33,633 nucleotides of DNA, taken from contig CAYMQR010000003.1 of NCBI GenBank assembly GCA_964392195.1, forward strand, positions 1 through 33,633, written 5' to 3'. The position numbers and the translations under genes were made by a program. Under the pieces are notes generated by a model. That model ran no database searches, was not told the DNA's origin, and was given only the letters and a program-made list of their open reading frames with translations. Shown one piece after another: positions 9,496 through 26,960 of this stretch. Each line of letters begins with the position of its first letter. Within the stretch, counting starts at the first letter, position 1. Source of the DNA: an uncultured bacterium. GTDB lineage: Bacteria > JADJOY01.

Positions 9496-9509
9496 GGCAG
9501 GCTGCGCGT

Positions 9510-10904: not shown

Positions 10905-12311
10905 ATGGCCGCTCGACGCGCTCTCTTCATCAACCCGCCGACCGGCAACTACATCCGGGACGACCGCTGCCAGGTTCCGGTCGAGAACTCGACGAGCGTG
11001 CTGCGCGCGCCCATCGACCTCGCCTACATGGCGGCCATGGTCGAGCAGGTCGGCTGGGAAGCGCGGATCGTCGACTATCCGGCGGAAGGTCTCGCCTGGA
11101 AGGACTTCGAGCGCGACCTCGACGTGTTTCGCCCCGATCTCCTCGCGGTGAGCACGACCACGCCGACGCTCCCTGGGGACATGAGGGCGTGTGAGCTCGC
11201 CAAGGCGCGCAACCCGGCGGTGCTCACGATCGCCAAGGGTGCCCACGTCACCACCCACGACGCCGAGACCCTCGCGGCCTTCCCGCAGCTCGACATCGCC
11301 ATCCGAGGCGAGTGCGAGGAGCTGCTCGGCGAGCTCCTCGCCACCGCTGATCGCTCCTCCGTCCTCGGCATCAGCTACCGGGACGGGGACCGGATCCAGC
11401 GCAACCCGGACCGCCCGCGACTCGAGGACCTCGACAGCCTGCCGTGGCCGGCCCGTCACCTCATGAACAACCGGCTCTACATCCGGCCCGACACCGGCGA
11501 GCCGCAGACCACGATCCAGACCAGCCGCGGCTGTCCGGCACGCTGCATCTACTGCCTCGTTCCCACGCTCAGCGGATTCGATACGTACCTGCGCTCGCCG
11601 GCGAGCATCGTCGCCGAGATGAAGCACTGCGTGACTCGCTTCGGCATCCGCAACTTCTACTTCCGCGCCGACACGTTCACGCTGCAGAAGTCCTGGACGA
11701 TCGAGCTCTGCAAGCTCATCCAGGAAGCGAACATGGACGTCGAGTGGGTCTGCAACAGCCGCGTCGACACGATGGACCCCGAGCGCGCCCGCGAGATGCG
11801 CAAGGCCGGTTGCTGGATGGTGGGCTTCGGGGTCGAGTCCGGCAACCAGGAGATCCTGCGCCACATGAAGAAGGGCGCGACGCTGGCGCAGGCCGAGCGC
11901 GCGATCCAGGCGTGCAAGGATGCCGGGATCAAGACCTACCTGTTCTGGGTCCTCGGCAGCCCCTGGGAGACCGCCGAGACGGCGCAGGACACCATCGACT
12001 TCGCGCGCAAGCTCGACGGCGACTTCTGCGAGTTCCACATCGCGTATCCGTTCCCCGGCACGCCGCTCCACGAGATCTGCACCGAAGAGGGTCTGCTGGG
12101 CGAGGAGCAGCTCACGGGACGCAACGTGAAGCAGGCCGTGGCGCGCAGCTACGCCCTCACCGCGGCCGACCTCAAGAAGATCCAGACCCGGGCACTCCGG
12201 TCGTTTTACCTGCGGCCGAGCTACGTCGCTCGAACCCTGCGCTCGATCGACTCGCCGGTGAAGCTCTGGAACTACGCCCGCCGCGGCCTCCAAGTGCTCA
12301 CCCACCCCTGA
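10905..12311 (+). CDS. B12-binding-domain radical SAM enzyme (class B), paralogue 1
   Basis: 468 aa. The N-terminal cobalamin-binding-type domain includes LFINPP...PIDLAYMAAMVEQVGWEARIVD. The radical SAM cluster motif CPARCIYC is at 11532-11555, and the SAM-binding-type segment GFGVESG is present. An in-frame TAG immediately upstream fixes the ATG. Confidence 0.88.
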   Translation: MAARRALFINPPTGNYIRDDRCQVPVENSTSVLRAPIDLAYMAAMVEQVGWEARIVDYPAEGLAWKDFERDLDVFRPDLLAVSTTTPTLPGDMRACELAKARNPAVLTIAKGAHVTTHDAETLAAFPQLDIAIRGECEELLGELLATADRSSVLGISYRDGDRIQRNPDRPRLEDLDSLPWPARHLMNNRLYIRPDTGEPQTTIQTSRGCPARCIYCLVPTLSGFDTYLRSPASIVAEMKHCVTRFGIRNFYFRADTFTLQKSWTIELCKLIQEANMDVEWVCNSRVDTMDPERAREMRKAGCWMVGFGVESGNQEILRHMKKGATLAQAERAIQACKDAGIKTYLFWVLGSPWETAETAQDTIDFARKLDGDFCEFHIAYPFPGTPLHEICTEEGLLGEEQLTGRNVKQAVARSYALTAADLKKIQTRALRSFYLRPSYVARTLRSIDSPVKLWNYARRGLQVLTHP

Positions 12312-13183
12312 TGCACGAGACCCAGCGCAACCACGACCGGCGGACCGACGTGAGCGAGATCCCGTCTAACACCCGAAGAGGCGAGCGATCAGCCGCCGAA
12401 CCCGCCCGCGACACCACGACCCACGCCTCGACGGCGAGCGGTCCGGCGCATCGCGTGACGGTGGTGCTGCCCGCGTACAACGCCGCGCGGACCCTAGAGC
12501 GCACCTACGCGGACATTCCCAAGCACGCCGTCGACGACATCATCCTCGTCGACGACGCGAGCCACGACGAGACCGTCGAGAAGGCCCGCCAGCTCGGCAT
12601 CCACGTGATCGTGCATCCCGAGAACCGGGGATACGGCGGAAACCAGAAGACCTGCTACACGGCGGCGCTCCACCGCGGCGCCGAGGTGATCGTCATGGTC
12701 CACCCGGACTACCAGTACGATCCCCGGGTGCTGCCCGACCTCATCGCGCCGATCCTGAGTGGCCGCGCCGACGTGGTGTTCGGATCACGGTTGGCCACCC
12801 GCGGCGGCGCCCTCGCCGGCGGCATGCCGCTCTACAAGTTCATCGGCAACCGCTTCCTCACGACGATCGAGAACGTGGTCTTCGGTCGCAACATGAGCGA
12901 GTACCACACCGGGCTCCGGGCCTACAGCCGCCGGTTTCTCGAGTCCATCCCGTTCATGAGCAACTCGGACGGCTTCGGCTTCGACTCGGAGGTCGTGGGG
13001 CAGATCGTCACAGGCGGTTACCGCCTCGAGGAGATCCCGGTCGAGACCCGGTACTTCCGGGAGGCGTCGAGCGTGAACCTCAAGATGAGCGTCCTCTACG
13101 GGCTGAAGACGCTCTCGGTCTGCGGACACGTCCTGTGGTTCCGCCTTCGGCGCCTGGTCGGAGCGGCTCCGGACCGAATTTGA
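12311..13183 (+). CDS. GT2 family glycosyltransferase (soluble, about 290 aa)
   Basis: The ORF 11444..13183 was trimmed to ATG 12311 (TGATG overlap with the rSAM stop). Motifs seen: VTVVLPAYNAARTL, ILVDDASHDET, NRGYGGNQK and HPDYQYDP (DxD-like). The first 45 or so residues are low-complexity, so a later GTG near 12455 is possible. Confidence 0.8.
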   Translation: MHETQRNHDRRTDVSEIPSNTRRGERSAAEPARDTTTHASTASGPAHRVTVVLPAYNAARTLERTYADIPKHAVDDIILVDDASHDETVEKARQLGIHVIVHPENRGYGGNQKTCYTAALHRGAEVIVMVHPDYQYDPRVLPDLIAPILSGRADVVFGSRLATRGGALAGGMPLYKFIGNRFLTTIENVVFGRNMSEYHTGLRAYSRRFLESIPFMSNSDGFGFDSEVVGQIVTGGYRLEEIPVETRYFREASSVNLKMSVLYGLKTLSVCGHVLWFRLRRLVGAAPDRI

Positions 13184-13237
13184 CGGGCCTCCGTCCGCGT
13201 CACTACCTTGGACCCATCAGTGAGCTCCGGGATCCAG

Positions 13238-14836
13238 ATGACGTCATCCAGTAGCGACGCGGGCGCCAGGATCGCGCTGGTACGCCCGCCGATCCTGAAG
13301 ATGACCCGGAGCTTGAGCTCCTTCGGGGTCATCCTCCCGATCGGGATCGCGTACGTGGCGGCGGTGCTGCGCCGCGAGGGCCACCGGATCCAGGTCCTGG
13401 ACGCGCCGGGGCTGGCGCTCGACACGTTCCGCCCCCAGCCGAGCCCCATCGGGACGCTCGAGCTCAACGGGCTGAACCCGGAGGAGATTGTCGAGCGGAT
13501 CGATGCCGACACCGAGGTGATCGGCATCACCCACATGTTCCTCCACGAGTGGCCGATGGTGCGCGAGATCGCCGAGCGCGCCCGGGCGCGCTTCCCCCGC
13601 GCCACGATCGTGCTCGGCGGTGAGAACGCCACGGCTTACCGCCGGTGGATCTTCCAGCAGACCGACGCGGTCGATTACTGCGTGCTCGGCGAGGGCGAGC
13701 TGACGATGGCCGAGCTGGTGCGCCGGCTCCGCAGCGGCGAGACGGCCGCCGGTCTGCAGGGCGTCGCATCGCGCGACCCATCGTTGCACCTCGGGCAACC
13801 GAGCCTGTCGCCCCGGCAGGTCGACGTCGACTCCTTCCCGCGGCCGGCCTGGGACCTGTTCCCGGTCGAGGGCTACATGAAGGTGGCCGACACCTTCGGT
13901 GTCCACCGCGGCCGCTCGATGCCGATGCTCGCGACGCGTGGTTGTCCATACCAGTGTACGTTCTGCTCGTCGCCCGACATGTGGACCACCCGCTACGTTG
14001 CTCGGGACGCCGCCGACGTCGTCGACGAGATGACCACGTACGTGCGCCGCTACGGGGTCGAGAACATCAACTTCTGCGACCTCACCGCGTTCGTGAAGCG
14101 CGAGTGGGCGCTCGACTTCGTCACCCGGCTGAAGGAAGCCAAGCTCGACATCGCCTGGCAGCTTCCCGCGGGCACCCGCTCCGAGGCCCTCGACCTCGAC
14201 GTCCTGGCGCTCGCTTACGAGACCGGGTGCCGGAACATCACCTACGCACCCGAGAGCGGGTCGGCCGATCAGCTCGGCCGCATCAAGAAGAAGGTCAAGA
14301 TCCCGCGGCTGGAGGAGTCGCTCCGCACCGCCCACAAGGTCGGCGTCGTAACCCGGATCAACCTGATCATCGGTCATCCGCACGAGACTGCGCGCGACCT
14401 GTGGCAGTCCTACCTTTTCTTGCTGCGCGTGGCGCTCTCGGGCTGCCGCGACGCTTCGGTGATGATCTTCGCGCCGTATCCGGGCAGCGCCGACTTCGAG
14501 GAGCTGATGGCGGCGGGCCGGATCGAGATGACGCCGCAGTATCACTACGCGGCGCTGGTCCGCTCCGGGCTCAGCAGCGTCACGTACAACAAGACGTTCG
14601 GCACGCGCGCGCTGTTCGCGATCCAGTACTTCTTCCTGGTGTCCTTCTACGGGCTCGCGTACCTGAGCCGCCCGTGGCGCTTCATCGACCTGGTCCGCAG
14701 CCTCGTCACGGGCCAGGAGACGAGCAACCTCGACACCCTCGTCCGGGTGAAGATCAAGCGCCGGCTCGGGGATCGGCTGAAGCGTGGGCTCGGCGGTAGG
14801 CCGACCGGCGCCGTCACCGTGGCCGAATCAGCGTGA
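13238..14836 (+). CDS. B12-binding-domain radical SAM enzyme (class B), paralogue 2, with a C-terminal hydrophobic helix
   Basis: Motifs seen: IALVRPP...PIGIAYVAAVLRREGHRIQVLD (B12-type domain), CPYQCTFC and YAPESGS. The hydrophobic segment RALFAIQYFFLVSFYGLAYL is at about 14606-14677. ATG 13238 was chosen; the ORF-track TTG 13208 is the alternative. Confidence 0.85.
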   Translation: MTSSSSDAGARIALVRPPILKMTRSLSSFGVILPIGIAYVAAVLRREGHRIQVLDAPGLALDTFRPQPSPIGTLELNGLNPEEIVERIDADTEVIGITHMFLHEWPMVREIAERARARFPRATIVLGGENATAYRRWIFQQTDAVDYCVLGEGELTMAELVRRLRSGETAAGLQGVASRDPSLHLGQPSLSPRQVDVDSFPRPAWDLFPVEGYMKVADTFGVHRGRSMPMLATRGCPYQCTFCSSPDMWTTRYVARDAADVVDEMTTYVRRYGVENINFCDLTAFVKREWALDFVTRLKEAKLDIAWQLPAGTRSEALDLDVLALAYETGCRNITYAPESGSADQLGRIKKKVKIPRLEESLRTAHKVGVVTRINLIIGHPHETARDLWQSYLFLLRVALSGCRDASVMIFAPYPGSADFEELMAAGRIEMTPQYHYAALVRSGLSSVTYNKTFGTRALFAIQYFFLVSFYGLAYLSRPWRFIDLVRSLVTGQETSNLDTLVRVKIKRRLGDRLKRGLGGRPTGAVTVAESA

Positions 14837-14841
14837 ATGCG

Positions 14842-14878
14842 TGACGCCTCGACGACACGTGTCGCGTCGAGGCGGTCA
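14842..14878. terminator. GC-rich hairpin between convergent genes (candidate bidirectional terminator)
   Basis: TGAC+GCCTCGACG (14842-14854) pairs with CGTCGAGGC+(G)+GTCA (14865-14878), giving about 13 bp with one bulge and a 10-nt loop. It lies in the 80-nt gap between the rSAM stop (14836) and the fbp stop (14917). There is no U-tract. Confidence 0.5.
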
Positions 14879-14916: not shown

Positions 14917-15918
14917 TCACGCCTTACCCTGGATGTAGCGCTCCGCTTCCTCGACGTCCTCGGCGCTGCCGATGATGAGCGGGACGCGCTGGTGGAGGCC
15001 CTCCGGCTGGATCTCCAGGATCCGCTGGCTCCCGGTCGACGCCGCACCACCGGCTCGCTCGCAGATGAGCGCCAGCGGCGCCGCCTCGTAGAGCAGCCTG
15101 AGTTTGCCCTTCGGCGACTTGGAGTCCGCCGGATACAGGAAGATGCCGCCGTAGAGCAGCGTGCGGTGGAAGTCCGCGACGAGCGAGCCGATGTAGCGCG
15201 CCTTGTACGGCAGATTCTTGGCCTTGTCGATCGTCTTCAGGCGATCGATGTAGCGGCGCGTACCCTCGGGCCAGAGGTGGTAATTGCCCTCGTTGGTGCT
15301 GTAGATCGAGCCGCGCCTCGGAATGCGAATGTCCTGGTGCGAGAGCAGGAACTCGCCGACGCTCGGGTCGAGCGTGAAGCCGTGCACGCCGTCGCCGGTG
15401 GTGAACACGAGCATCGTCGAGGTTCCGTAGAGCACGTAGCCGGCGCACACCTGCTCGACACCCGGCTGCATGCAGTCCTGCGGCGTCCCCGGTCCGCTCG
15501 CGCTGCGACGGCGGTGCACCGAGAAGATCGTGCCGATGTTGACGTTCGCGTCGATGTTGCTCGACCCGTCGAGCGGGTCGAAGTTGAGGATGTACTTCCC
15601 GTGCGGGAACCCGTCCGGGATCGGGATGATGTCCTTCTCTTCCTCGGACGCCATCGTGCACAGGAGGCCGGGGTACTGGAACATCCGGATCATCGTCTCG
15701 TGGGCGAACACGTCGAGCTTCTTGACTTCCTCCCCCTGGACGTTGACCGCGCCCGTCGCGCCGAGCACGTCGACGAGCCCCGCATGCGATACCTCACGCT
15801 GGATGACCTTGGCGGCGAGCGCGATGTGCGTCAGCAGCGCCGAGAACTCGCCCGTGGCCCCGGGGTGACGGTGCTCGGTCGAAAGGATGAATCGGTTGAG
15901 GGTCATCGCTTCGGCCAT
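14917..15918 (-). CDS. fbp: Fructose-1,6-bisphosphatase class 1
   Basis: The ORF 14917..16140 was trimmed to ATG 15918 (MAEAMTLNRFILSTEHRHPGATGEFSALL...), which has a GGGAGG RBS 5 nt upstream. FBPase I motifs are present: FDPLDGSSNID, GYVLYGTSTMLV, ARYIGSLVADFHRTLLYGGIFLYP and LRLLYEAAPLA. Confidence 0.93.
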   Translation of the reverse strand: MAEAMTLNRFILSTEHRHPGATGEFSALLTHIALAAKVIQREVSHAGLVDVLGATGAVNVQGEEVKKLDVFAHETMIRMFQYPGLLCTMASEEEKDIIPIPDGFPHGKYILNFDPLDGSSNIDANVNIGTIFSVHRRRSASGPGTPQDCMQPGVEQVCAGYVLYGTSTMLVFTTGDGVHGFTLDPSVGEFLLSHQDIRIPRRGSIYSTNEGNYHLWPEGTRRYIDRLKTIDKAKNLPYKARYIGSLVADFHRTLLYGGIFLYPADSKSPKGKLRLLYEAAPLALICERAGGAASTGSQRILEIQPEGLHQRVPLIIGSAEDVEEAERYIQGKA

Positions 15919-16030
15919 CGCAACCTCCCTTTCCTGGGTGGGGGATCCGGATTCCGGAGAGCCCAAGGAGGCCGAACGTAGCGGGCGCCGTTCGACCCCG
16001 GCAACCGTGCGCGGAAGGCGTGCTCGAGCA

Positions 16031-16060
16031 CGGCGGAGACTCGTTTCCCGGGCTCCGCCG
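16031..16060 (-). terminator. Hairpin immediately after the REC-PilZ stop codon
   Basis: CGGCGGAG (16031-16038) pairs with CTCCGCCG (16053-16060): 8 bp with a 14-nt loop, starting 1 nt from stop 16062-16064. The perfect palindrome GTGCTCGAGCAC (16020-16031) abuts it. There is no U-tract. Confidence 0.35.
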
Positions 16061-16061
16061 C

Positions 16062-16946
16062 TCAGGTTCCGTCGCCCGCCTCGCGGTCGGGGGATGCGGG
16101 CTCGAGACCTCCGAGGGGCCCGGTCTCGGCTTCCAGCCACGGTGCACGGGCCTTGGCTGCCCCGCCATAGCGTTCCAGGTAGCGAACGATCGCCGCGCGC
16201 GCGACTGCCGGCACGTCCTCGAACTCGAGTCCCATTCCTTCCCGGACCTGGACCTGTGCCCCCCGCTTCCCGCCCACGTTGATCCGCACGACCCGGCCTC
16301 GCAGGGCGAGCTCGGCGTTCGCGCCCGGGAGCACGAACCGCATCGACACCTTGGTGTCGACCGGGAACGGTGCGTCGGTCTCGACGAAGGCGCCAGTCGC
16401 GCTCACGTCGGTGAGCAGCCCCTCTAGCCTCTTGGCGAAGAGCCCGAGCACGACAGGCGCCGCCACGGCGACGCGTGGGTGGCGTCGCTGCTCGGGCCTA
16501 CCCGGGGAGAACGACTCGAGCACCGCCTCGGCGAGGTCCGCCGCGGCCCACGACCTGCTCGCACACCGCGTGATGCCGCACGCCTGGCAGACCTCCGGCG
16601 AGGTCGGGTCGAACGGGTCTTCGACGATCCAGACCGGCACATCGCCGAGCAGACCCTTGGCCTTGAGCCAGCTCAGCACCCCGAGTCCGTCGAACTCGAG
16701 CTGACCGACGTCCACCATCACGAGATCCGCACGGCGCCGCTCGGCCCTGAGCCATTCGTACGCCTCGTCCGGGTCCGCGAGCAGCACCGGCGTGAGCCCG
16801 CGCTCGGCGAGGCGCTCCGGCAACTCGGATCCCCGGGCCAGGCCTTCGCCGACGAGAGCGACACGGGGCGAAGAGCGCTGGCGGTCGGGTTGCATCGATC
16901 GGTGAACGCTCGGCGGCGCGGTGAGGATCCCGGGAGATCGTAGCAT
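16062..16946 (-). CDS. Receiver-like domain + PilZ domain protein (putative c-di-GMP receptor)
   Basis: The C-terminal PilZ motifs are RRHPR (RxxxR) and DVSATGAFV (DxSxxG). The N-terminal CheY-like fold (ADLVMVDV...VPVWIV) has ALVGEG where the usual acidic DD pair sits. The start is ambiguous: ATG 16946 or ATG 16895, neither with an SD. Confidence 0.72.
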   Translation of the reverse strand: MLRSPGILTAPPSVHRSMQPDRQRSSPRVALVGEGLARGSELPERLAERGLTPVLLADPDEAYEWLRAERRRADLVMVDVGQLEFDGLGVLSWLKAKGLLGDVPVWIVEDPFDPTSPEVCQACGITRCASRSWAAADLAEAVLESFSPGRPEQRRHPRVAVAAPVVLGLFAKRLEGLLTDVSATGAFVETDAPFPVDTKVSMRFVLPGANAELALRGRVVRINVGGKRGAQVQVREGMGLEFEDVPAVARAAIVRYLERYGGAAKARAPWLEAETGPLGGLEPASPDREAGDGT

Positions 16947-16999: not shown

Positions 17000-18748
17000 G
17001 TGGGCCAGCGGTCCCCCACCGCCTCCCATCTCGTGGATTCCTCGTCGCCGGCCGACCTCGACTGCCTGTTCGTTCACGTCCCCAAAGCGGCGAACCACTA
17101 TCTGCCGCTCGGGGATTTCTTCAACGTGACGTACATGCCGATGGGCCTGCCGGCGCTGGCCGACTGGGCCAACCGCGCCGGCTTCCGGACCGAGATCGTG
17201 CACCTCGGGGTGGAGTGGATCCGCGATCCCGGCTTCGACCTGTTGCGCTGGCTCGACGGCCGCACGGTCCGCGCGTTCGGTCTCCCGCTCTACTGGCACT
17301 ACCAGAGCTACGACGTCATCGAGACCGCGCGCCGGCTCAAGGCGCGCTGCCCCGACTCGTTCGTGTTTCTCGGCGGCCTCACCGCGGGCTACTTCGCGGA
17401 GCAGATCCTGACGCTGGTGCCCGAGATCGACGCGGTCCTCCAGGGACCCGCCGAAGGCGCGATCGTTCCGCTGCTGGAACGCGTGCGCGCCGGCGACGCG
17501 ACCGCGCCCGTCGACGCCTGGGTGCGGGACGCCGACGGCCGGCCGGTTCGCAGGCCGCCGAGCACGACGCGCCCGCCGCTCGACGAGCTCGTGTACGCGA
17601 ACCTCGGCATGATGCGAGGCGCGGACACCTACGCCCAGCTCTTCGGGTTCCCCCTCGCCTACTCCACCGAGCTGCATGCCACCGAGAATCGCGCCCGGCT
17701 CTCCGGCGGGCTAGGGAAGTTTCCGCTCTTCATCGGGCGCGGCTGTCCGTGGAGCTGCACGTTCTGCGGTGGCAACCGCGACACCTTGCGGCGCGTGAAC
17801 GGCACCGCTCACCCCGAGTGGCGCTCCCACGACCGGGTTCTCGCGGACATCCGCCGCGCGATGGGCCACGGCTACCGGGTGGTGTCGACGTGCTTCGATC
17901 CCATTCCCGAGCGCGATGGGTACTTCGTCGACCTGTTCGAGCGGATCGCGCGCGAACGCCTCGACGTCGACTGGTACTTCGAGTGCTGGGGACTGCCGAC
18001 CGAACGCTTCGTCCAGGCGTTCAAGCGAGCGTTCCCCGGTCCGCTCTCCACCATCGCGCTGTCACCCGACGCCGGGAACCAGGCGGTACGGCGCGTGAAC
18101 AAGCAGCCCTACTACGACGACGACGCGCTCTACCGCACGATGCGGATCCTCGAGTCCGCCGAGGTCGCGACCGACGTCTTCTACACGCTCGCGCTTCCGG
18201 GCGAGACGCTCGCCGCGGCCAACGACACGCGCGACCAGATGGCGAGAGTACGGGGGTACCGCAACGCCCGGCGGGTGATGGTCTGGACCGTGCAGCTCGA
18301 GCCGGGTTCACCGCAGTTCGAGCGGCCCGAGGCGTTCCGGATGGAGACGGATCGTCGTTCGTTCCTCGACTACTACCGGGTCCACGGAGGAGCGCACGGC
18401 GACACCTATTCGAGCCTCGGCTTTAAGATCCGCGACTACTTCGGCGACTCCCGCGACGCCGGATCGATCGCCGACTTCGAGACGCGCGTCCAGGCGTACA
18501 AGTGCGCCGACCTGTGCTTCCTCAGCGCCGACCCGCGCGAGCCTGTCGCCGCCGCGAGCGGCCGAGCGCACTGCCTCGAGCGCCGGCGCGAGCTGGCCGC
18601 GCGGCGCGGGTTGCCGCCCCCGGCGCGCACGCTCGGGCCCGGGTACGAGTACGCGGACGCATTCGCCGCCGAGGTCCCGCGCCGCGCGGGCCGGTTCCAC
18701 TGGGTGGCGCCGTCCACCGTTCCGCTCGGCGCCGGGGCGACGCCGTGA
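17000..18748 (+). CDS. B12-binding-type radical SAM enzyme, paralogue 3 (divergent)
   Basis: 582 aa. The N-terminal Rossmann-like domain (LFVHVPK...YMPMGLPALADWANRAGFRTEIVHLG, VFLGGLTAGYF) precedes CPWSCTFCGG. The start is GTG, behind a purine-rich leader. The C-terminal 100 or so residues show no recognisable motif. Confidence 0.78.
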   Translation: MGQRSPTASHLVDSSSPADLDCLFVHVPKAANHYLPLGDFFNVTYMPMGLPALADWANRAGFRTEIVHLGVEWIRDPGFDLLRWLDGRTVRAFGLPLYWHYQSYDVIETARRLKARCPDSFVFLGGLTAGYFAEQILTLVPEIDAVLQGPAEGAIVPLLERVRAGDATAPVDAWVRDADGRPVRRPPSTTRPPLDELVYANLGMMRGADTYAQLFGFPLAYSTELHATENRARLSGGLGKFPLFIGRGCPWSCTFCGGNRDTLRRVNGTAHPEWRSHDRVLADIRRAMGHGYRVVSTCFDPIPERDGYFVDLFERIARERLDVDWYFECWGLPTERFVQAFKRAFPGPLSTIALSPDAGNQAVRRVNKQPYYDDDALYRTMRILESAEVATDVFYTLALPGETLAAANDTRDQMARVRGYRNARRVMVWTVQLEPGSPQFERPEAFRMETDRRSFLDYYRVHGGAHGDTYSSLGFKIRDYFGDSRDAGSIADFETRVQAYKCADLCFLSADPREPVAAASGRAHCLERRRELAARRGLPPPARTLGPGYEYADAFAAEVPRRAGRFHWVAPSTVPLGAGATP

Positions 18749-19998: not shown

Positions 19999-20007
19999 GC
20001 GGCACCC

Positions 20008-21312
20008 ATGCTGGTTGCGCGGACCCTCGTCGAGAAGATCCTCGCGCCTAGATCGCGCGGACCGGTGGTCACCGGAAGCCGCTACCACGCGATCGAGGTC
20101 GATCTCGTGCTCGCCCACGACGCCACGTTCACGCTCGGGATCGACCGCATCGAGCGCCTCGGCCTGCCGATGCCCGGCGCGCAGAAGCTGCTCTTCGCCG
20201 CCGATCACTTCGCGCCGCCGTCGAGCCCCGAGCGCGCCGCGATCCTGGGACGCTACGTCACCTTCCTGGGCGAGCGTGGATTGCCGCGTGACCAGCTCTT
20301 CCGTGGCATCAGTCACCAGCTCGCCGTCGAGGATCCACGGGCGGTCCCTGGGAGCGTGGTGGTCGGGGCCGACTCGCACACCACGATGATCGGCGCGCTC
20401 GGCTGCTTCGCGACGGGCTTCGGCACCACCGACATCCTGGCGGTGCTCGCCACCGGCACCGCCTTCCTGGAGATCCCCGCGTCGATCGAGCTCGTGGTGC
20501 GTGGCCAGCCGGATCCGGTGATCGAGGGGAAGGACCTCGCGCTCGAGATGCTCTCGCTGCTCGGCGAGGACGGGGGGCTCGGCCACGCGATCGAGGTCCA
20601 CGACCGTACCGCGGCCGGCATCGGCTTCGACGCGCGCTGCGCCATCACCAACCAGGCCGTCGAGGCGGGCGCGACCAGCGCGGCGTTCGTGCCCGACGCG
20701 GTCACGGCGCGGTATCTGGCCTCCCGCGACGGCGTCGAGACCCGTGATCTCGAGCGGTGGCGGCCCGATCCGGATGCGAGCTATGCCCGCACGCTCTCGC
20801 TCGACGCGTCGTCGCTGGCGCCGCGGGTCGCGCGACCTGGCTCGCCCGCGGACGTCGTGCCGGTCGCGGAGGTGGCCGGCGAGCCGATCCAGCAGGCGTT
20901 CGTGGGATCCTGCGCGGGTGGCCGTGTGAGCGAGATCGAGGCCGCCGCGGCCATCGTGCGGGGCCGCCGGATCGCCCCGGGCGTGCGCATGGTGGTCACC
21001 CCGGCGAGCGAGCAGGTGTGGCGCGCGACGTCGCGAAGTGGCGCTCTCGAGACGCTCAGCGAGGCCGGCGCGCTCGTCACCAACCCGTCGTGCGGAGCCT
21101 GCGGCGGGATCGACAAGGGCCTCCTCGCGGCCGGGGAGCTCTGCATCAGCACGTCGAATCGCAACGGTCCCGGGCGCATGGGGCACCGCGATGCCCGCAT
21201 CATGCTCGCCAGCGCCGCGACCGTGGCGGCCTCGGCCGTGACGGGACGCGTGACCGACCCTCGCCAACTCGCCGCCGCTGGGTCCGCCGTTCCCTCTCCG
21301 GTGCTCGCGTGA
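20008..21312 (+). CDS. Aconitase-family dehydratase large subunit (LeuC/HacA-like)
   Basis: 434 aa. GADSHTTMIGALG is present. The Fe-S ligand motifs are VGSCAGGR and NPSCGACGG. The size is that of the split archaeal-type large subunit. Confidence 0.88.
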   Translation: MLVARTLVEKILAPRSRGPVVTGSRYHAIEVDLVLAHDATFTLGIDRIERLGLPMPGAQKLLFAADHFAPPSSPERAAILGRYVTFLGERGLPRDQLFRGISHQLAVEDPRAVPGSVVVGADSHTTMIGALGCFATGFGTTDILAVLATGTAFLEIPASIELVVRGQPDPVIEGKDLALEMLSLLGEDGGLGHAIEVHDRTAAGIGFDARCAITNQAVEAGATSAAFVPDAVTARYLASRDGVETRDLERWRPDPDASYARTLSLDASSLAPRVARPGSPADVVPVAEVAGEPIQQAFVGSCAGGRVSEIEAAAAIVRGRRIAPGVRMVVTPASEQVWRATSRSGALETLSEAGALVTNPSCGACGGIDKGLLAAGELCISTSNRNGPGRMGHRDARIMLASAATVAASAVTGRVTDPRQLAAAGSAVPSPVLA

Positions 21313-21842
21313 GCACGCCGGTGCACCGAGCCCCCCGAGAGGCTGGCCGCCTGCGTGGGCGTGCGCTCGTGCTCGGCGAACACGTCAACGCGGACCTCCT
21401 GCATCCGCCCGCGTTCTTCTCGCTCGACGCGGCGCGTGTCCGATCCGGCTTTCTCGCCGGGCTCGGCTGGGAGGACCGGCCGGGCACCCTCGACAGCCGC
21501 TGGATCGTCGTGGCGGGGCGGAACTTCGGCTGTGGCTCGAGCCGCGAGACCACGGTGGACGCTCTCCGGCGTGGCGGCGTGGTCGCCGTCGTGGCGCCGA
21601 GCTTCGGGCGCATCTTCCAGCGCACGGCCACCGCGCTCGGGTTGCCATGCTTCACCACCGCCGACACGGCGACGCTCGCCTCGATCCAGCCGCACTCGCT
21701 GGTCGAGCTCGATCCGTCCGCGCCGTCTCTCGTCGCCGCTGAGCGTGGCCTCCGGGTCGCGCTCGACCGGCCAGATCCATTTCTCGAGGCGGTCCGTGAC
21801 GCAGGCGGGCTGCTCGAATGGCTCGGGCACCAGCGCCCATGA
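21309..21842 (+). CDS. Aconitase-family dehydratase small subunit (LeuD/HacB-like)
   Basis: The ORF 20757..21842 was trimmed to GTG 21309 (GTGA overlap). The GRNFGCGSSRE motif is present. The product is about 177 aa. Confidence 0.85.
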   Translation: MSTPVHRAPREAGRLRGRALVLGEHVNADLLHPPAFFSLDAARVRSGFLAGLGWEDRPGTLDSRWIVVAGRNFGCGSSRETTVDALRRGGVVAVVAPSFGRIFQRTATALGLPCFTTADTATLASIQPHSLVELDPSAPSLVAAERGLRVALDRPDPFLEAVRDAGGLLEWLGHQRP

Positions 21843-23149
21843 CGGCCATTCGAAGCGGGCGTCGCCCGTACGACTACGACGTCGCGGTGGTCGGGGCGGG
21901 ACCGGCCGGGCTTGCCGCTGCGATCCGAGCCCGCTGGCTCAAGGGGTTCGATCCATGGCCGAGCAGCGTCGTGGTCTTCGACCCAGGGCCTCTCGGCGGG
22001 CTCGGCCGCTGGGGCTCCTGCGTCCTGACCGGACCCGGGTGGTCACTCTCCGGCGCCGAGCTGACCGATCGTCTCGCGGCGGATGTCCGGGGCCTCGCCA
22101 TCCCGGTGCTCCGGGAAGCCGTGACGCGCGTGGTGCGGGACGGCCCGTATCTGGTGCTGCGTGCTGGCGACCGCGACGTGCGGACGCTCGCGATCGTGCT
22201 CGCCTCGGGCTTGAGGACCCTCGCGAACGAGGATCGGCACTTCCCCGACGGAGTGATCATCGCCATGAAGGGGCGGGCACACCTCCGATCGCTCGTCGGG
22301 CGCGCCATCGAAGCCGGCCGCAGGGACGGGTTGGTCGTGGTCGGGAACGCTCACACCGCGCTGCTCGTGCCGGTCTTCGCCGAGCTCGGCGGCTCGGTCC
22401 GGATCCGGTGGGTGGTCGAGCCCTCGACCACCGCCACCTCGAGCACCCACGGCGAGGTGCCCACCGCGCTTCCCCACCCCACCCTGCACGGCCGGCTGGT
22501 CGCGGTCGAGGGCGACGAGCAGGTGGCAGGCGTGACGATCGCGACCGCCGACGGCCCGGTCCACCTCCCCTGCAGCGGCGTCTTCATCGATTATCACGCC
22601 TTCGAGATCCGGCCCGCGGTGTCGGTCGAAGGCCTCGGCCACCTGGGCATCCGAGCCACCGGGGAAGGATTCGTGGAGACGGACTCGTGGAACGAGACGC
22701 GGGCGCCCGGCATCTTCGCCGCCGGTGACGTGACCGGTCGCTACGCCTCCACGCTCACCGCCCTCGGGGATGGAGTGAGCGCGGGGTTCGGCGCTCACCG
22801 CCACGCCTTCCGCGCCAAGTTCGGTGTCGAACCCGACCTGTTCGCCTACCGCGGCCTGGCGCGGCCGCTGGCGCCGGACGGGGAACGGGGGCCCGCGATC
22901 GCCGAAGACGACGTGCCGGTGCTCGTCGGCGTGGCGCACCGCGCCCGCGCGGTGCTCGAGCGTGTGTTGTCCCCGGCGGCGGCGAGCGAGGTGGTCGGCA
23001 CGATCGGCGCCCACGACTCGTCCGTTGCCGAGCTCCGTGCCCGGGCCGACCTGCCACGCGCCGTCCTCGAGGCCGCGCTGCGTGCGGGCATCCAGGCTCG
23101 CGAGATCGTCCTCCACCGCGAGCCAGCGCCCGCGAGCGCCGCACCGTGA
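21839..23149 (+). CDS. FAD-dependent oxidoreductase with a thioredoxin-reductase-like fold; lacks a CxxC redox pair and carries a C-terminal extension
   Basis: ATG 21839 forms an ATGA overlap with the upstream stop. FAD motifs are VAVVGAGPAGLAAA and GIFAAGDVTG. The second dinucleotide site reads LVVVGNAHTALL, a degenerate GxGxxG/A. No CxxC is found anywhere in the catalytic region. The last 110 or so residues have no motif I recognise. Confidence 0.7.
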   Translation: MTAIRSGRRPYDYDVAVVGAGPAGLAAAIRARWLKGFDPWPSSVVVFDPGPLGGLGRWGSCVLTGPGWSLSGAELTDRLAADVRGLAIPVLREAVTRVVRDGPYLVLRAGDRDVRTLAIVLASGLRTLANEDRHFPDGVIIAMKGRAHLRSLVGRAIEAGRRDGLVVVGNAHTALLVPVFAELGGSVRIRWVVEPSTTATSSTHGEVPTALPHPTLHGRLVAVEGDEQVAGVTIATADGPVHLPCSGVFIDYHAFEIRPAVSVEGLGHLGIRATGEGFVETDSWNETRAPGIFAAGDVTGRYASTLTALGDGVSAGFGAHRHAFRAKFGVEPDLFAYRGLARPLAPDGERGPAIAEDDVPVLVGVAHRARAVLERVLSPAAASEVVGTIGAHDSSVAELRARADLPRAVLEAALRAGIQAREIVLHREPAPASAAP

Positions 23150-24297
23150 GCCAGTCCCCCTCCGACGACCGGGTAGGCGACGAGCGCGGTCGGCTCACGC
23201 GGCGCGTGCTCGCGGCGATCCGGGTCGAGAGCACCGGATCGCCCGGGTCCGCCACCGATTGGAACTCCCTCGCGCTCGAGGTGTTCGCGTTCCAGTTCCG
23301 CGCGATGCCGGTGTTCGGCGGCTGGTGCGAGGCGCGGGGGATCGCGCCGGCGCGCGTCCAGACCCCGTGGCAGATCCCGGCGGTGCCCACCGAGGCGTTC
23401 AAGCATCTGCCGCTGTTCGCCGGCGACCCCGCCGACGTCACGCGGACGTTCCGCACCAGCGGGACGTCCAGCCTGGAGGCGCGCGGCGCCGCGCACTTCA
23501 GCTTGGCGGGTCTCGAGCTGATGGACGCGGCGATCGACGTGCGGGCCCGGCAGATGCTCTTCCCCGACCTCGATCGGACCCGGATCGTGGCCCTCGCCCC
23601 GCCGCCGGAGGCCGACCCGGAGCGCGTCATGGCGTACGGGATCCGCCGCCTCGTGACCACCTTCGGGAGGGATGCGGGAACCTTCCTCGTCGGTCCCGCC
23701 GGGCTCGACGTCGGCCGCGCCGTGGAGACGCTACGCGAGGCGTCCAGCGCGCGAGAGCCGGTCACCGTCGCGGGTGCGACATCGGCGCTCGCCGCGGTGC
23801 TCGCGTCCCTCACCCTCGCGGACGACGGCGTGAAGCTCCCACCCGGCTCGCGCGTCATGCACGCGGGCGGACAGAAGCGAGGGGCCGCGCCGGTGGAGCC
23901 CACGCGACTTCGAGAGGAGGTCGCTCGCTGGCTCGGCGTGCCCGAGACTCGCTGCGTGAACCTGCTCGGCATGACCGAGCTCGCGAGCCAGCTCTACGAC
24001 GATACGATCCGCGCAGCGGCCGCCGGCGCGCGGCCCCGGCGAGGCAAGGTGCCGCCGCCGTGGTGCCGGACCTGGGTCACCGATCCCGCGAGTCCCGAGC
24101 CCCTTCCGCACGGCGCCGTGGGCCTGCTTCGCCACCTCGATCTGGCCAATGTCGAGCGGCCCGTCTGCGTGCAGACCGATGATCTCGGTCTCACTTACGA
24201 CGACGGCAGCTTCGAGATCCTCGGGCGCGCCGCCGGCGCCGAGGCGCGCGGCTGCGCGCTCGACCTCGACGAGTGGCGATCCATGGCGGCACCGTGA
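23146..24297 (+). CDS. LuxE-family acyl-protein synthetase (carboxylate-activating, AMP-forming)
   Basis: GTG 23146 forms a GTGA overlap. It aligns by eye with Vibrio LuxE. IPAVPTEAFK...TFRTSGTSS corresponds to IPVFPTSVFK...WFTSSGTNG. VPPPWCRTWVTDPASPEPLPHGAVGLL corresponds to [27 protein letters not shown]. The C-terminal RGCALDL (Cys codon 24253-24255) corresponds to the acylated KGCALSL. Confidence 0.82.
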   Translation: MSQSPSDDRVGDERGRLTRRVLAAIRVESTGSPGSATDWNSLALEVFAFQFRAMPVFGGWCEARGIAPARVQTPWQIPAVPTEAFKHLPLFAGDPADVTRTFRTSGTSSLEARGAAHFSLAGLELMDAAIDVRARQMLFPDLDRTRIVALAPPPEADPERVMAYGIRRLVTTFGRDAGTFLVGPAGLDVGRAVETLREASSAREPVTVAGATSALAAVLASLTLADDGVKLPPGSRVMHAGGQKRGAAPVEPTRLREEVARWLGVPETRCVNLLGMTELASQLYDDTIRAAAAGARPRRGKVPPPWCRTWVTDPASPEPLPHGAVGLLRHLDLANVERPVCVQTDDLGLTYDDGSFEILGRAAGAEARGCALDLDEWRSMAAP

Positions 24298-25733
24298 TGC
24301 CGGCGGTCGTCGAGTCGGGATGGATCCCGCCCGCGCTCGGCGAGGCGACCGACGCGACCGAACAGGTCCGGTGGCGCACCCCCGCTGGCGAGGACGCCGA
24401 GGTACGGCGGCCCGCGCTGTCGCCGGCCCGGCTCGCGTCCCTGGCGCGAGGGCTGCGGGAGGTGGGCCGGCGGTGCCTGGCCGCGCGGCCGATCGCGGGG
24501 ATCGTCGACAGCCTCGAGCGCGTCGCGCAGCTCTGGCTCGACCCGGCGACTCCCGAGCGTCGCCAGGCGATCGACCAGATCGCGTGGGCGAGCGGCTTCT
24601 CGAGGGAGATGGTGGCGCATGCGATCGACCTCGAGTTCGAGTCGAGCCGCGGTCCCCACCTCTGGCGCGCGCTGGAGGCCGAGCTGGGGGCTCCAGCGAG
24701 CCTCGACACGTTCGTCTTCGACGCACGGCTGGGCGGACACCTGCGCGCCTTCGGCCCCGAGCTGGTGGGCGGCATCGCGAGCGCCAACATCCCCGGCCTG
24801 CCCCACCTGATCGCGACGCGGGCGTTCCTCGTCAAGGCCCCGTGCCTGGTCCGTACCTCGCGCGACGAGCCGGTCTTCTTGCCGCTGTTCGCTCGCACAC
24901 TCGCTCGCGTGGACGAGGACCTCGCGGCTTGCCTCGCGGTCGTCGACTTCGATCCTCACGATGGCGCGCTCGACGCCGCATTCCTGGCGGGAATCGATCA
25001 CCTCGTCGCGTTCGGCGGCGTCGACGCGCTCGCGTCGCTGCGCGCGCGCCTGCCTCCGCGCGTCACCGCCACCTGGCACGGGCATCGCCTCGGGTTCGGC
25101 GTCGTGGCGCGCGAGGCCCTCGCAGCCGATCTGACCGACCTCGCGGACCGCATCGCCTACGACTTCTCGCTCTACGACCGCGAGGCCTGCCTCAGCCCGC
25201 AGGCGCTCTTCGTCGAGGAGGGAGGCGAGCGCTCACCGCGGGAGCTCGCACGCGCGATCGCCTCCGCCATGGAGCGCTGGCTCGAGCGGTTGCCGGCGTG
25301 CCGGTTTCCGCTCGCCGAGCGAGGCCGCTTCCGCACCGCGGTCGAGCTGGTCGGGCTGCGCTCGGCCGCCGGCGAGAACGTCGAGGTCGTGGCGGACGGA
25401 GCCGGCTACGCCGTGGTCCTCGAGCGGCCCGCGCCTCTCGACGCGGCGCCCCGCGGCCGGTTCGTACGTATCATGCCGGTCCCGGATGTCGCGCGGGTAC
25501 CGGGCCTCGTTGCATCGCTCGGCCCGTACCTGCAGGTGGCGTTCGTGGAGGGCGACGAGCACCGCTCCGAGCATCTTCGACACGCCCTCGCCCGGATGGG
25601 CGTCACGCGGATCACGCGCGCTGGACTGGCGGGCTTGCCGTCGATGATGTGGCGACACGACGGCGTCGCCTGCCTGGCAGCGCTCGTGCGCTGGGTCACC
25701 GACGAGCGGAGCGCGCCCCGGGATCGGCTATGA
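24294..25733 (+). CDS. LuxC-family acyl-CoA/acyl-protein reductase (aldehyde-forming)
   Basis: The start is GTG 24294 (GTGA overlap) or ATG 24297. The product is about 480 aa, and its layout is that of the LuxC/ALDH-like family. A candidate catalytic Cys lies in YDREACLSPQALFV. The gene is positioned immediately after the LuxE homologue. Confidence 0.7.
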   Translation: MMPAVVESGWIPPALGEATDATEQVRWRTPAGEDAEVRRPALSPARLASLARGLREVGRRCLAARPIAGIVDSLERVAQLWLDPATPERRQAIDQIAWASGFSREMVAHAIDLEFESSRGPHLWRALEAELGAPASLDTFVFDARLGGHLRAFGPELVGGIASANIPGLPHLIATRAFLVKAPCLVRTSRDEPVFLPLFARTLARVDEDLAACLAVVDFDPHDGALDAAFLAGIDHLVAFGGVDALASLRARLPPRVTATWHGHRLGFGVVAREALAADLTDLADRIAYDFSLYDREACLSPQALFVEEGGERSPRELARAIASAMERWLERLPACRFPLAERGRFRTAVELVGLRSAAGENVEVVADGAGYAVVLERPAPLDAAPRGRFVRIMPVPDVARVPGLVASLGPYLQVAFVEGDEHRSEHLRHALARMGVTRITRAGLAGLPSMMWRHDGVACLAALVRWVTDERSAPRDRL

Positions 25734-26960
25734 GCCGCCGGCGCGCCTCTCGCTCCAGTCCTCCACGCGTGGGCACTCGGGATCCGGTCGAAACGGATCG
25801 CCGGTGAGGTACCGAGAGACCGCCCTGCACCCGCCTCCGCAGATCGAGAGGTAGGTACAGCTCGCGCACGGCTCCCCGGCCGAGTCGCGATGGTTCCGGT
25901 AGCGAACCAGCGCGTCCGCGGAATCCCACTCCGCGGCCAACCCGCCGGGGAGGACGCGGCCATCCTCCAGGAAGCTGCAGGCGTGGGTGCGCCCGACCGC
26001 GTCGACCGAGGCCAGGTGATGCCCCGCTTCGCACCCGAGCATGCCGAGGAGCCGCATGCGGTCGAGGTCGGGTCCGTGGTGGCAGGCCATCGGTAGGAAC
26101 GAGCAGTCGATCCGGGGCCGAACCCGCGCATTGCGAGCGATGGCCAGGATCCGGGGATAGACCTCGCGGGCCTGCTCCCGCGTGAGGACGCGCTGCCGGT
26201 AGTCGGTCGCGCCCCGCCCGGTGGGCTTGAGACGCAGGAACTCGATCTCGCGGACTCCGAGGCGCCGCACGGCGCGCGCGAGCTCGTCCAGGCGGTCGAC
26301 GTTCTGGCGCGTCACCACGCAGTTCACCCCGGTCCGCACCCGCGCGCGCCTCAGCACCTCGAGAGCCCTGGCCGCGAGCTGCCACGAGCCCGGCGGCCGG
26401 CCCGCTGCGTCGTCCCACCCGGACAGGCCGTCGACGCTGACGTTGACCTGGCCGAAGACCCGCGAGCGCCGTGCCAGCTCGCTCGTCATGCCGAGGCCGC
26501 TGGTGGTGACGTTGGGCACGATCCCGAGGGTCCGTGCGTGCCTCGCGATCTCGAAGAGGTCGCTGCGTAGGTACGACTCGCCGCCGCCCATCGCGATGTG
26601 AAGCACCCCCGCGGCGGCGAGATCGTCGAGCATCGCGCATACGGCCGCGGTCGAGAGCTCGCCCGGCGAGGGCTCGGCCGCGTCCACGTAACAACCGCGG
26701 CACCCGATCGGACACGCGCGGGTCAGCGTGAGGTGCACCTCCGTCGGAGCCGAGAGCGTCTTTCGCGATGACGCCCAGCGCGGATGGTCGCGGAAGCCGA
26801 GGCGCCGCAGGAACGCGTGGTCGACGAACGCCAGAAGCGGCGGACGCTCGAGGGCCACGATGCCGCCGAACGACTCGAAGCGGATCCGCACGCCGAGCCC
26901 GCCGAGCACACGACGGAGCCACGACGAGGGCGCGGATCGCCACGCGGCACGGCCCGTCAC
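25728..26960 (-). CDS. Radical SAM enzyme with a C-terminal SPASM/twitch-type auxiliary cluster domain
   Basis: 410 aa. The radical SAM motif is CPIGCRGCY. GGGESYL is present. The Cys-rich C-terminus reads CSFL...CHHG...CEAG...CSF...CASCTYLSICGGGCRA. About 75 aa precede the core (IRFESFGGIVALERPPLLAFVDHAFLRRLG). The GTG start at 26960 is uncertain, with GTG 26891 as the alternative. Confidence 0.82.
   Translation of the reverse strand: MTGRAAWRSAPSSWLRRVLGGLGVRIRFESFGGIVALERPPLLAFVDHAFLRRLGFRDHPRWASSRKTLSAPTEVHLTLTRACPIGCRGCYVDAAEPSPGELSTAAVCAMLDDLAAAGVLHIAMGGGESYLRSDLFEIARHARTLGIVPNVTTSGLGMTSELARRSRVFGQVNVSVDGLSGWDDAAGRPPGSWQLAARALEVLRRARVRTGVNCVVTRQNVDRLDELARAVRRLGVREIEFLRLKPTGRGATDYRQRVLTREQAREVYPRILAIARNARVRPRIDCSFLPMACHHGPDLDRMRLLGMLGCEAGHHLASVDAVGRTHACSFLEDGRVLPGGLAAEWDSADALVRYRNHRDSAGEPCASCTYLSICGGGCRAVSRYLTGDPFRPDPECPRVEDWSERRAGGS

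Follow-up and report, generated by a model that had tools for sequence, protein, structure and literature searches.

Four genes encoding radical S-adenosylmethionine (SAM) enzymes lie within 16 kb (10905-26960) of a 33,633-nt stretch of DNA from an uncultured bacterium of the JADJOY01 lineage (contig CAYMQR010000003.1, positions 1 to 33,633; hereafter the window), directly beside a set of glycan genes. The question that this locus raises is whether the four genes, numbered here rSAM1 to rSAM4 in the order of their positions, belong to a single biosynthetic supercluster attached to the glycan locus, as a first-pass annotation made from the sequence alone had proposed, or to several units that happen to adjoin one another. 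The units that we distinguish are unit A, with rSAM1, a small family 2 glycosyltransferase (GT2b) and rSAM2; unit C, a seven-gene cassette that runs from rSAM3 to a LuxC-like reductase; and unit D, with rSAM4 (Table 1). We consider it probable that separate functional units lie side by side over these 16 kb, an arrangement specific to the lineage, and that they do not form one biosynthetic supercluster. This reading is carried by the gene content, the conserved catalytic residues, the packing of the operons and the independent distribution of the units, for the cassette is present in 26 further loci without the other units within 10 kb, homologues of rSAM2 are present in 38 loci with no rSAM1 orthologue beside them, and relatives of rSAM4 have a different conserved context. 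Independent distribution of the sub-operons, which had been named beforehand as the observation that would count against a supercluster, was thus found for the rSAM3-LuxC cassette, for rSAM2 and for rSAM4.

The cassette was followed with a search seeded with an alignment of rSAM3 relatives and limited to one genome per species, which yielded 79 genome loci; 10 kb was fetched on each side, wide enough to take in all four rSAM genes, and all window proteins were compared with these loci by tblastn in a co-occurrence matrix. With the searches described below, about 130 related loci were compared in total. Only five close relatives (L001-L004 and L014), with rSAM3 proteins 74-84% identical to that of the window, show its full arrangement. 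In all five, a fructose-1,6-bisphosphatase (FBPase) gene and a PilZ-domain gene are also retained between the units, so the co-occurrence is what would be expected from shared descent. The 26 further loci come from metagenome-assembled genomes (MAGs) labelled Myxococcota, Gemmatimonadota, Hydrogenedentota, Binatia and Thermodesulfobacteriota, and have rSAM3 proteins 39-58% identical to that of the window; 20 of them carry all seven cassette genes and six carry four to six. Gene order is permuted in five (L007, L013, L032, L033 and L035), which argues for selection on the gene set and not for an inherited order. Orthologues of rSAM1, GT2b, rSAM2, rSAM4 or the glycan genes were found within 10 kb of none of these 26 cassettes, all-against-all clustering of the flanking open reading frames (ORFs) revealed no eighth conserved cassette gene, and in two annotated examples the operon stands among unrelated housekeeping genes. 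Within the window the cassette genes are joined by overlaps of 4 or 25 nt or by a 9-nt gap, the synthase start overlapping the rSAM3 stop by 4 nt. Unit C (17000-25733) is, by prediction, an autonomous, translationally coupled seven-gene operon.

A second search, made with an alignment of six rSAM2 orthologues, gave 43 metagenome loci, and a homologue of rSAM2, mostly 44-62% identical, is present in 38 of them. An rSAM1 orthologue adjoins none of the 38, a GT2b-like gene lies directly downstream in one only (L103), and no neighbour is generally conserved apart from occasional genes for GT-C glycosyltransferases: PMT/PMT_2 genes occur near the homologues in L093 and L103, and L108 has a weak, sub-threshold PMT_2 match. 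We conclude from these contexts that rSAM2 is an independently distributed enzyme, in a setting predicted to be compatible with lipid-linked sugar chemistry, and that its position after GT2b is specific to the lineage of the window. As for rSAM4, among the 79 loci it adjoins the cassette in the immediate lineage only.

The enzymes themselves are as first described, three of the B12-binding type and one of the SPASM type. All four cysteine motifs, of the form CX3CX2C, were found exactly as given, Pfam places a Radical_SAM domain in 4/4 of the proteins, and the domain assignments are supported by Pfam, NCBIfam and, for rSAM3, AlphaFold with Foldseek. The B12-binding domain (PF02310) scores over threshold in rSAM1 (59 bits) and rSAM2 (66 bits), and its match in rSAM3 is sub-threshold (26 bits against 32). 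The AlphaFold model of rSAM3 (pLDDT 90.8), which has an N-terminal Rossmann B12 domain and a radical SAM barrel, finds its best Foldseek matches in TsrM, CysS, AprD4, MgmA, TokK and OxsB, and the model thereby confirms a class B fold for this protein. The class B fold is by itself no proof of cobalamin use, AprD4 being a case in point. We classify rSAM1, rSAM2 and rSAM3 as class B (B12-binding) radical SAM enzymes for which use of cobalamin is predicted. None of the four reaches a curated equivalog cutoff in NCBIfam, and none is a recent duplicate of another, as pairwise identities do not exceed 26% (25-26% for rSAM1 and rSAM2, which belong to different families). The density of these genes can be set against a model of random gene placement, with 25-60 rSAM genes assumed per 5000-8000 genes: four independent rSAM genes would fall within 14 genes with a chance of 0.0002-0.02 per genome, which is improbable, and three independent rSAM-containing units with a chance of 0.02-0.4, which is not rare. 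Because rSAM1 and rSAM2 belong to one unit, the density requires no functional explanation; that members of a conspicuous enzyme class lie close together is no evidence for a shared pathway.

Several points weigh against the separation of the units. Co-occurrence was scored only within 10 kb on either side of each cassette. The five close relatives keep the whole arrangement together, so that it is stable in the lineage, and functional coupling of the units within that lineage may exist; the PilZ and FBPase genes could relate to exopolysaccharide control or supply. Beside the cassette in four other lineages there are extra rSAM genes that are not orthologous to those of the window (three in L029, five in L048, one in the L032 group and one in L031), a hint that radical enzymes may often carry out further tailoring of the cassette product, possibly on a lipid. 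A distant rSAM3 homologue (36% identical) sits in a lipid-type cluster at L043:129-20116, with similar clusters in L040 and L044, which makes a glycolipid link conceivable. Lastly, unit A is without the final component of the route proposed for it below, as Pfam detects no GT-C transferase among the window genes. The rival reading is a supercluster specific to this activated-sludge lineage, in which the glycan operon, unit A, the cassette and rSAM4 jointly build one elaborately modified glycolipid or glycan, the cassette supplying an unusual aldehyde-derived or acyl appendage. This alternative gains from the conservation of the whole arrangement in five related MAGs, from the extra rSAM genes of the four other lineages, from the clustering of the distant rSAM3 homologue with GT2, LuxE/LuxC and lipid-handling genes, and from the occurrence of LuxC/LuxE genes inside Aeromonas flagellin glycosylation islands (PMC7874193). 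However, the five relatives are close and have also kept FBPase and PilZ genes that lie on the opposite strand, for which synteny by descent suffices; 19 of the 26 other cassette loci contain neither an extra rSAM gene nor glycan genes; the extra rSAM proteins of the other lineages are not orthologues of those in the window; and the units here differ in strand and meet at convergent and divergent junctions. On balance, we think a joint pathway of this kind unlikely.

If the units are separate, the cassette has to be understood from its own seven genes, of which the first encodes rSAM3. A PDB sequence search with rSAM3 gave no match, only the fold search being informative, and an exact-sequence look-up returned no record; its 149 homologues are nearly all from MAGs. 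Although the fold is that of the class B structures named above, identity to them is 13-18% and the TM-score about 0.5, and rSAM3 differs from them in a distinct C-terminal domain bearing three cysteines (Cys502, Cys506 and Cys525) that are invariant in the family and lie outside the SAM-cluster motif. These may form an auxiliary metal site unseen in the matched B12 rSAM structures.

The second gene encodes a homocitrate/isopropylmalate-synthase-like enzyme whose best NCBIfam matches, NifV (312 bits) and isopropylmalate synthase (IPMS; 309 bits), lie under every equivalog cutoff. Its catalytic Arg, Glu/Asp and His are kept in 39/39 orthologues. In Thermus homocitrate synthase (HCS), the distal carboxylate of 2-oxoglutarate is presumably held by His72 and Arg133. 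The position aligned to His72 is Ser80 in the window enzyme and Ser in 37 of 39 orthologues, that aligned to Ser135 is Val142 and Val in 35 of 39, and that of Arg133 is Arg in the window only, with Asn, Glu or Gln in other cassettes. The pocket residues Ser80 and Val142 are conserved in the cassette and unlike those of both HCS and IPMS. The name 'true homocitrate synthase' was rejected, since the HCS-like Arg of the window enzyme is not kept in its orthologues. A similar picture is given by the two-subunit aconitase-type isomerase. The small-subunit loop, which we take to set specificity in enzymes of this type, reads FFSL in the window and [FY][FY]SL in the orthologues, as against YLRT in the M. 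jannaschii homoaconitase subunit (PDB 2pkp) and YLVY in an isopropylmalate/citramalate isomerase subunit (PDB 3vba).

A DRE-TIM synthase with an HCS_D2 domain and a two-subunit isomerase recall the modules LeuA/LeuCD/LeuB, HCS/HACN/HICDH and AksA/D/E/F, and the first-pass annotation had indeed listed a 2-oxoacid-elongation module, a carboxylate reductase and a GT2 among the genes accompanying the radical enzymes. The GT2 stands. The module is incomplete, since a β-decarboxylating dehydrogenase (LeuB/HICDH type) is absent from the window and is conserved near none of the 26 cassette loci, and the reductase turns out to be a LuxE/LuxC pair and not of the carboxylic acid reductase (CAR) type. The cassette might nevertheless be a variant of primary 2-oxoacid elongation, of the lysine/α-aminoadipate or leucine type, and not specialized metabolism, given that homocitrate and isopropylmalate synthases are the best matches of its synthase and that its large subunit passes the generic aconitase/isopropylmalate dehydratase family cutoff. 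We regard this as very improbable. Neither a β-decarboxylating dehydrogenase nor an aminotransferase is conserved in any of the 26 loci; the synthase stays under every equivalog cutoff; the Ser/Val pocket and the [FY][FY]SL loop are cassette-conserved and unlike their counterparts in HCS/HACN and IPMS/isopropylmalate isomerase; a constant B12 rSAM with LuxE/LuxC is foreign to the lysine and leucine routes; and the distribution is patchy, with relatives nearly all from uncultured genomes.

The remaining three genes encode a flavoprotein and the LuxE/LuxC pair. In the thioredoxin-reductase-fold flavoprotein the GxGxxG and GD (FAD) motifs are conserved, its matches to thioredoxin reductases in the PDB do not exceed 44 bits, and the sequence contains no CxxC, the lack of which rules out the name 'thioredoxin reductase'. 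The LuxE-type synthetase adjoins the LuxC-type reductase as in the Lux fatty-acid reductase, and both catalytic cysteines are kept: the Cys of YDQQAC in solved LuxC (Cys286; PMC9157457) aligns with a conserved Cys of YDREAC, and the C-terminal Cys of LuxE is conserved relative to PDB 7xc6_E. The NCBIfam equivalog scores of LuxC/LuxE are far under cutoff (46 against 550 and 67 against 750), and LuxD and the luciferase genes LuxA and LuxB are absent from the window. In contrast to the Lux reductase, the pair is set among a synthase, an isomerase, a flavoprotein and a B12 rSAM, and for this reason the acid that it reduces is probably not a plain fatty acid.

A role in membrane-lipid tailoring has to be weighed here, in which the cassette would provide fatty aldehydes for ether bonds and B12-dependent methyl branching, as for branched or membrane-spanning lipids, in place of a small-acid pathway. 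LuxC and LuxE are classically fatty-acid reductases (PMC9157457), and two kinds of locus lend the idea some substance. In the Thermodesulfobacteriota locus L048 (441-9657) the genes directly upstream of the cassette encode three B12-type rSAMs, one MiaB-like rSAM and one Tes/TrsS-like rSAM with an N-terminal zinc ribbon, and the locus also has a UbiU/TrhP-like U32 protein. The L043-type clusters join the rSAM3 homologue to a GT2, a B12 rSAM, LuxE, LuxC, an SDR, a DUF3592 protein, a U32 protein and an MMPL transporter, followed by an amine-oxidase-like flavoprotein, an LpxL-like acyltransferase, another B12 rSAM, a FabD-like acyltransferase and an ATP-grasp protein. However, the L043-type clusters contain no synthase and no isomerase, so that they may represent a different pathway sharing only three enzyme types; the synthase and isomerase of the cassette act on small hydroxy-di/tricarboxylic acids and have no obvious long-acyl role; and lipid genes are absent near most cassette loci. 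Lipid tailoring seems to us an improbable explanation, although a less remote one than primary elongation.

Our working hypothesis, on the reading of the cassette as a separate small-acid pathway, is that the dedicated synthase would condense acetyl-CoA with a 2-oxoacid and the dedicated aconitase-type isomerase would rearrange the condensation product. The flavoprotein would give a redox step, either oxidizing the 3-substituted malate in place of the absent dehydrogenase or feeding electrons to the rSAM, and rSAM3 would methylate or rearrange an unactivated carbon. LuxE would activate the carboxylate as an enzyme thioester, which LuxC would reduce to the aldehyde. These substrates and products, like those of unit A, are what we infer from the genes. 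In the literature we found nothing relevant on LuxC/LuxE with a radical SAM enzyme or homocitrate synthase, nor on the small-subunit loop motifs.

The part of the first-pass proposal that fares best is the tie between radical chemistry and glycans, which is supported by the contexts of the rSAM1 and GT2b pair elsewhere. The best NCBIfam match of rSAM1 is HpnJ (TIGR03471), over the full length at 257 bits and below the cutoff of 578; hopanoid genes (shc, hpnH, hpnI or hpnK) were found neither in the window nor beside the rSAM1 orthologues in six contexts. The three top NCBIfam matches of GT2b, all sub-cutoff, are AglJ, PpgS and a dolichyl-phosphate hexose transferase. The 120 best matches of rSAM1 are all at least 48% identical and include archaeal (Woesearchaeota, Nanoarchaeota) and many bacterial entries, and the orthologues compared in context are 51-55% identical. 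A GT2 of 238-262 residues directly follows the rSAM1 orthologue in five of six independent contexts (including L080, L083 and L132-L134), and in L080 and L083-L085 it is 59-61% identical to GT2b; in the sixth, an archaeal contig, the rSAM adjoins PMT_2 and two EamA genes. Around the orthologues lie genes for NeuB, cytidylyltransferases, epimerases, a UDP-sugar dehydrogenase and PMT/PMT_2 GT-C proteins, with a GT-C transferase beside the orthologue in L081, L132, L133 and L134, and several contexts share a compact set of PMT_2 (GT-C), class I methyltransferase, B12 rSAM and GT2. The rSAM1/GT2 pair is thus found in surface-glycan loci in five of the six sampled contexts, in Bacteria and Archaea. 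A link of unit A to the adjacent glycan operon is plausible from gene content.

Two known systems help to interpret the pair. The cyclitol ether that is made from hopanoid-linked glucosamine is lost on deletion of hpnJ, calditol head groups require the archaeal radical SAM enzyme Cds, and ring contraction of a lipid-linked hexose has been proposed for both (2026 review, PMC13459092). In HpnI/HpnJ and Cds, as is envisaged for unit A, a GT2 first attaches a hexose or hexosamine to an acceptor lipid, and the sugar so linked is then remodelled by a radical SAM enzyme. The difference is that GT2b resembles polyprenyl-phosphate hexose synthases and not HpnI, and that the neighbours of the rSAM1 family are usually GT-C/PMT_2 and glycan genes, in both Archaea and Bacteria. 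In three-component glycosylation systems, enzymes (epimerases) that alter polyprenyl-phosphate sugars ahead of GT-C transfer are established (PMC11127046). The likeness to such systems (Gtr, Arn and Citrobacter pentofuranose) is that a small GT2 resembling the polyprenyl-phosphate sugar synthases adjoins a GT-C in most rSAM1 orthologue contexts; here, by contrast, the auxiliary enzyme is a B12 radical SAM protein, often with a class I methyltransferase, the window lacks a GT-C, and the sole flippase candidate near unit A is the LPG_synthase_TM protein, which falls outside the flippase families known for three-component systems (GtrA, MATE or EamA type). From the glycan contexts, the GT2b matches, the likeness to HpnJ and Cds and the precedent of three-component systems we infer that the product of GT2b is a polyprenyl-phosphate sugar, which a B12 enzyme goes on to remodel, so that rSAM1 and GT2b probably, by analogy, remodel a polyprenyl-phosphate-linked sugar. 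The occurrence of rSAM1/GT2 in glycan loci, together with that of rSAM2 beside GT-C genes, makes it reasonable that the target of the radical chemistry is a sugar or a lipid-linked sugar. GT2b would load a hexose or hexosamine onto polyprenyl phosphate; the B12 rSAM enzyme or enzymes of unit A would remodel the lipid-linked sugar by C-methylation or by ring contraction of the HpnJ/Cds type; and after flipping, the remodelled sugar would be attached to a surface glycan, which is probably made by the divergent operon at 275-10562. A literature search found no description of the rSAM1/GT2 pair, nor of a B12 rSAM with polyprenyl or GT-C.

Two side observations concern unit A. At L080:8001-17431 and L132:7001-15422 the pair of B12 rSAM and small GT2 is present twice or more within a few kb, and between the repeated pairs lie genes for class I methyltransferases and for a protein of about 530 residues without Pfam domains. 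In the five close relatives of the window the unit A proteins (rSAM1 88-96%, GT2b 83-91% and rSAM2 81-91% identical) are far better conserved than the cassette proteins that follow rSAM3 (synthase 62-75%, HacB-like subunit 55-67%, flavoprotein 50-74% and LuxE 55-68%).

The fourth enzyme, rSAM4, has its best NCBIfam match in MftC (161 bits, below the cutoff of 265), aligned over positions 5-333 of 339. This end-to-end alignment and a C-terminal CX2CX5CX3C motif (C365/C368/C374/C378) liken it to the SPASM peptide maturases of the MftC/PqqE type, although the Pfam SPASM model gave no score on it. It differs from these in falling below every cutoff and in the pairing of its relatives with a small GYNPNSSS membrane protein; mftA and mftB genes are absent beside it. 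The relatives are 44-49% identical, one of them from the cultured Geomesophilobacter sediminis, and belong to a set composed of a protein of about 390 residues, a membrane protein of about 70 residues, the rSAM and a protein of about 205 residues, with Metallophos and HupE_UreJ_2 genes nearby. The context of three distant homologues (L086:4614-7769, L087:4347-7185 and L088:4528-7787) is unlike that of the window. The small protein that precedes the rSAM4 relatives (about 70-90 residues) carries a K-x-GYNPNSSS motif followed by a hydrophobic helix, and is present in two copies in L087; L086 and L088 share homologous flanking proteins of about 390 and 205 residues, whereas in L087 the upstream protein, of 414 residues, is unrelated and there is no counterpart downstream. 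No Pfam or NCBIfam family covers these partner proteins, and the GYNPNSSS set looks, by sequence, like an undescribed SPASM-maturase system. Neither the GYNPNSSS motif nor the usual partners of rSAM4 occur in the window or its close relatives. Instead, rSAM4 is preceded on the same strand by genes for a DUF4124 protein and a protein without a family match, both conserved only in close relatives; unit D would thus consist of a radical enzyme from a family that works elsewhere with a small membrane peptide, here beside a DUF4124 protein. The rSAM4 gene converges on LuxC with a coding overlap of 6 nt (25728-25733), which leaves no space for terminators between them.

It is of interest to consider what separate units would mean. 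Both the rSAM1/GT2 pair and the seven-gene cassette appear to be undescribed in the literature. Tentatively, and well short of thinking it probable in full, we suggest that two undescribed systems are juxtaposed here. One would be a bacterial and archaeal device of B12 rSAM and GT2 that remodels a polyprenyl-phosphate sugar, by ring contraction to a carbasugar or cyclitol or by C-methylation, for a GT-C to install on a surface glycan. The other would be a seven-gene pathway, nearly confined to uncultured bacteria, in which LuxE carries a purpose-built alkylmalate-type acid as a thioester, the B12 rSAM modifies this acid, and LuxC sets it free as an aldehyde, with a new class of metabolite or cofactor as the final product. 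If rSAM1/GT2 does remodel lipid-linked sugars by radical chemistry, current glycan prediction overlooks a class of decoration, that with carbasugars or C-methyl sugars. The cassette, a clean and portable operon whose specificity residues are both conserved and distinctive, should be easy to synthesize and express, so that a metabolite of uncultured sludge, soil and marine bacteria comes within experimental reach.

Table 1. Features of the window (positions in nt; ~ marks an approximate boundary)
Feature	Position	Strand	Basis
UDP-glucose dehydrogenase	275-1573	-	Pfam
WcaJ-type undecaprenyl-phosphate glucose phosphotransferase (priming)	1649-~3058	-	NCBIfam WcaJ_sugtrans, 496 bits (cutoff 411)
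GT4 glycosyltransferase	3061-~4449	-	Pfam
GT4 glycosyltransferase	4454-5728	-	Pfam
GT4 glycosyltransferase	5575-6786	-	Pfam
GT4 glycosyltransferase	6714-7844	-	Pfam
ArnC-like GT2	7861-8901	-	Pfam Glycos_transf_2
YdjM-family inner-membrane protein	8868-9437	-	Pfam YdjM; kept in close relatives
LPG_synthase_TM/flippase-like membrane protein	9510-10562	-	Pfam PF03706, 136 bits
rSAM1, B12-binding radical SAM, HpnJ-like	10905-12311	+	Pfam; motif CPARCIYC (11532-11555)
GT2b, small GT2	12350-13183 (start 12350 or 12455)	+	Pfam
rSAM2, B12-binding radical SAM	13208-14836	+	Pfam; motif CPYQCTFC (13943-13966)
Class 1 FBPase, spacer	14917-15918	-	NCBIfam equivalog, 498 bits (cutoff 368)
PilZ-domain protein, spacer, divergent from rSAM3	16062-16946	-	Pfam PilZ; TIGR02266, 53 bits (sub-cutoff, 69)
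rSAM3, B12-binding radical SAM, cassette gene 1	17000-18748	+	Pfam; motif CPWSCTFC (17744-17767); AlphaFold/Foldseek
Homocitrate/isopropylmalate-synthase-like enzyme	18745-19998	+	Pfam HMGL-like and HCS_D2
Aconitase-family large subunit (HacA/LeuC-like)	20008-21312	+	NCBIfam NF001614, 409 bits (cutoff 385)
Aconitase-family small subunit (HacB/LeuD-like)	21309-21842	+	Pfam; loop FFSL
Thioredoxin-reductase-fold flavoprotein	21818-23149	+	Pfam Pyr_redox_2
LuxE-like acyl-protein synthetase	23146-24297	+	Pfam LuxE, 37.5 bits (above threshold); PDB 7xc6_E
LuxC-like acyl-thioester reductase (aldehyde-forming)	24273-25733	+	Pfam LuxC, 234 bits (above threshold); PDB 7xc6_A
rSAM4, SPASM-type radical SAM	25728-26960	-	Pfam; motif CPIGCRGC (26691-26714)
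DUF4124 secreted small protein	26995-27306	-	Pfam DUF4124
Protein without family match	27381-~28001	-	Pfam and NCBIfam empty

The glycan operon beside unit A had been counted as ten genes; we count nine co-directional genes on the minus strand (275-10562). The best NCBIfam match of its ArnC-like GT2 is undecaprenyl-phosphate 4-deoxy-4-formamido-L-arabinose transferase (249 bits, under the cutoff of 529), which makes it a candidate polyprenyl-phosphate sugar synthase by homology. The gene for the LPG_synthase_TM protein, which also matches the NCBIfam flippase-like domain TIGR00374 (61 bits, above the cutoff of 43), is divergent from rSAM1.

The window has a G+C content of about 70%, and for this reason genes were called with the help of third-position GC bias, in GC3 frame plots, before annotation with Pfam and then NCBIfam. 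The runs that hold the sequence are DNA runs from activated-sludge metagenomes, with no RNA run among them. An Rfam scan of the window gave no matches, so that no cobalamin or SAM riboswitch marks any of the units, and no flanking tRNA genes of the kind found with islands were detected. A promoter scan, uninformative in sequence of 70% G+C, gave no promoter-like sites, and the two terminator-like sites both lie within coding sequence and are no more numerous than in shuffled controls, being likewise uninformative at this G+C content. The genes downstream of unit D (28003-33633), none of which recurs beside the cassette in other loci, encode an 866-residue methyl-accepting chemotaxis protein, an HU protein, a MaoC/HadA-like dehydratase, an enoyl-CoA hydratase and a truncated Hsp70. 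The longest ORF of the FBPase gene (14917-16140, from a GTG at 16140) is probably over-extended, the domain beginning about 78 codons in; the likely start is the ATG at 15918, with a purine-rich stretch, GGAAAGGGAGG, just 5' of it. The HU protein is likewise encoded in a long ORF, with 40-odd codons ahead of the HU domain.

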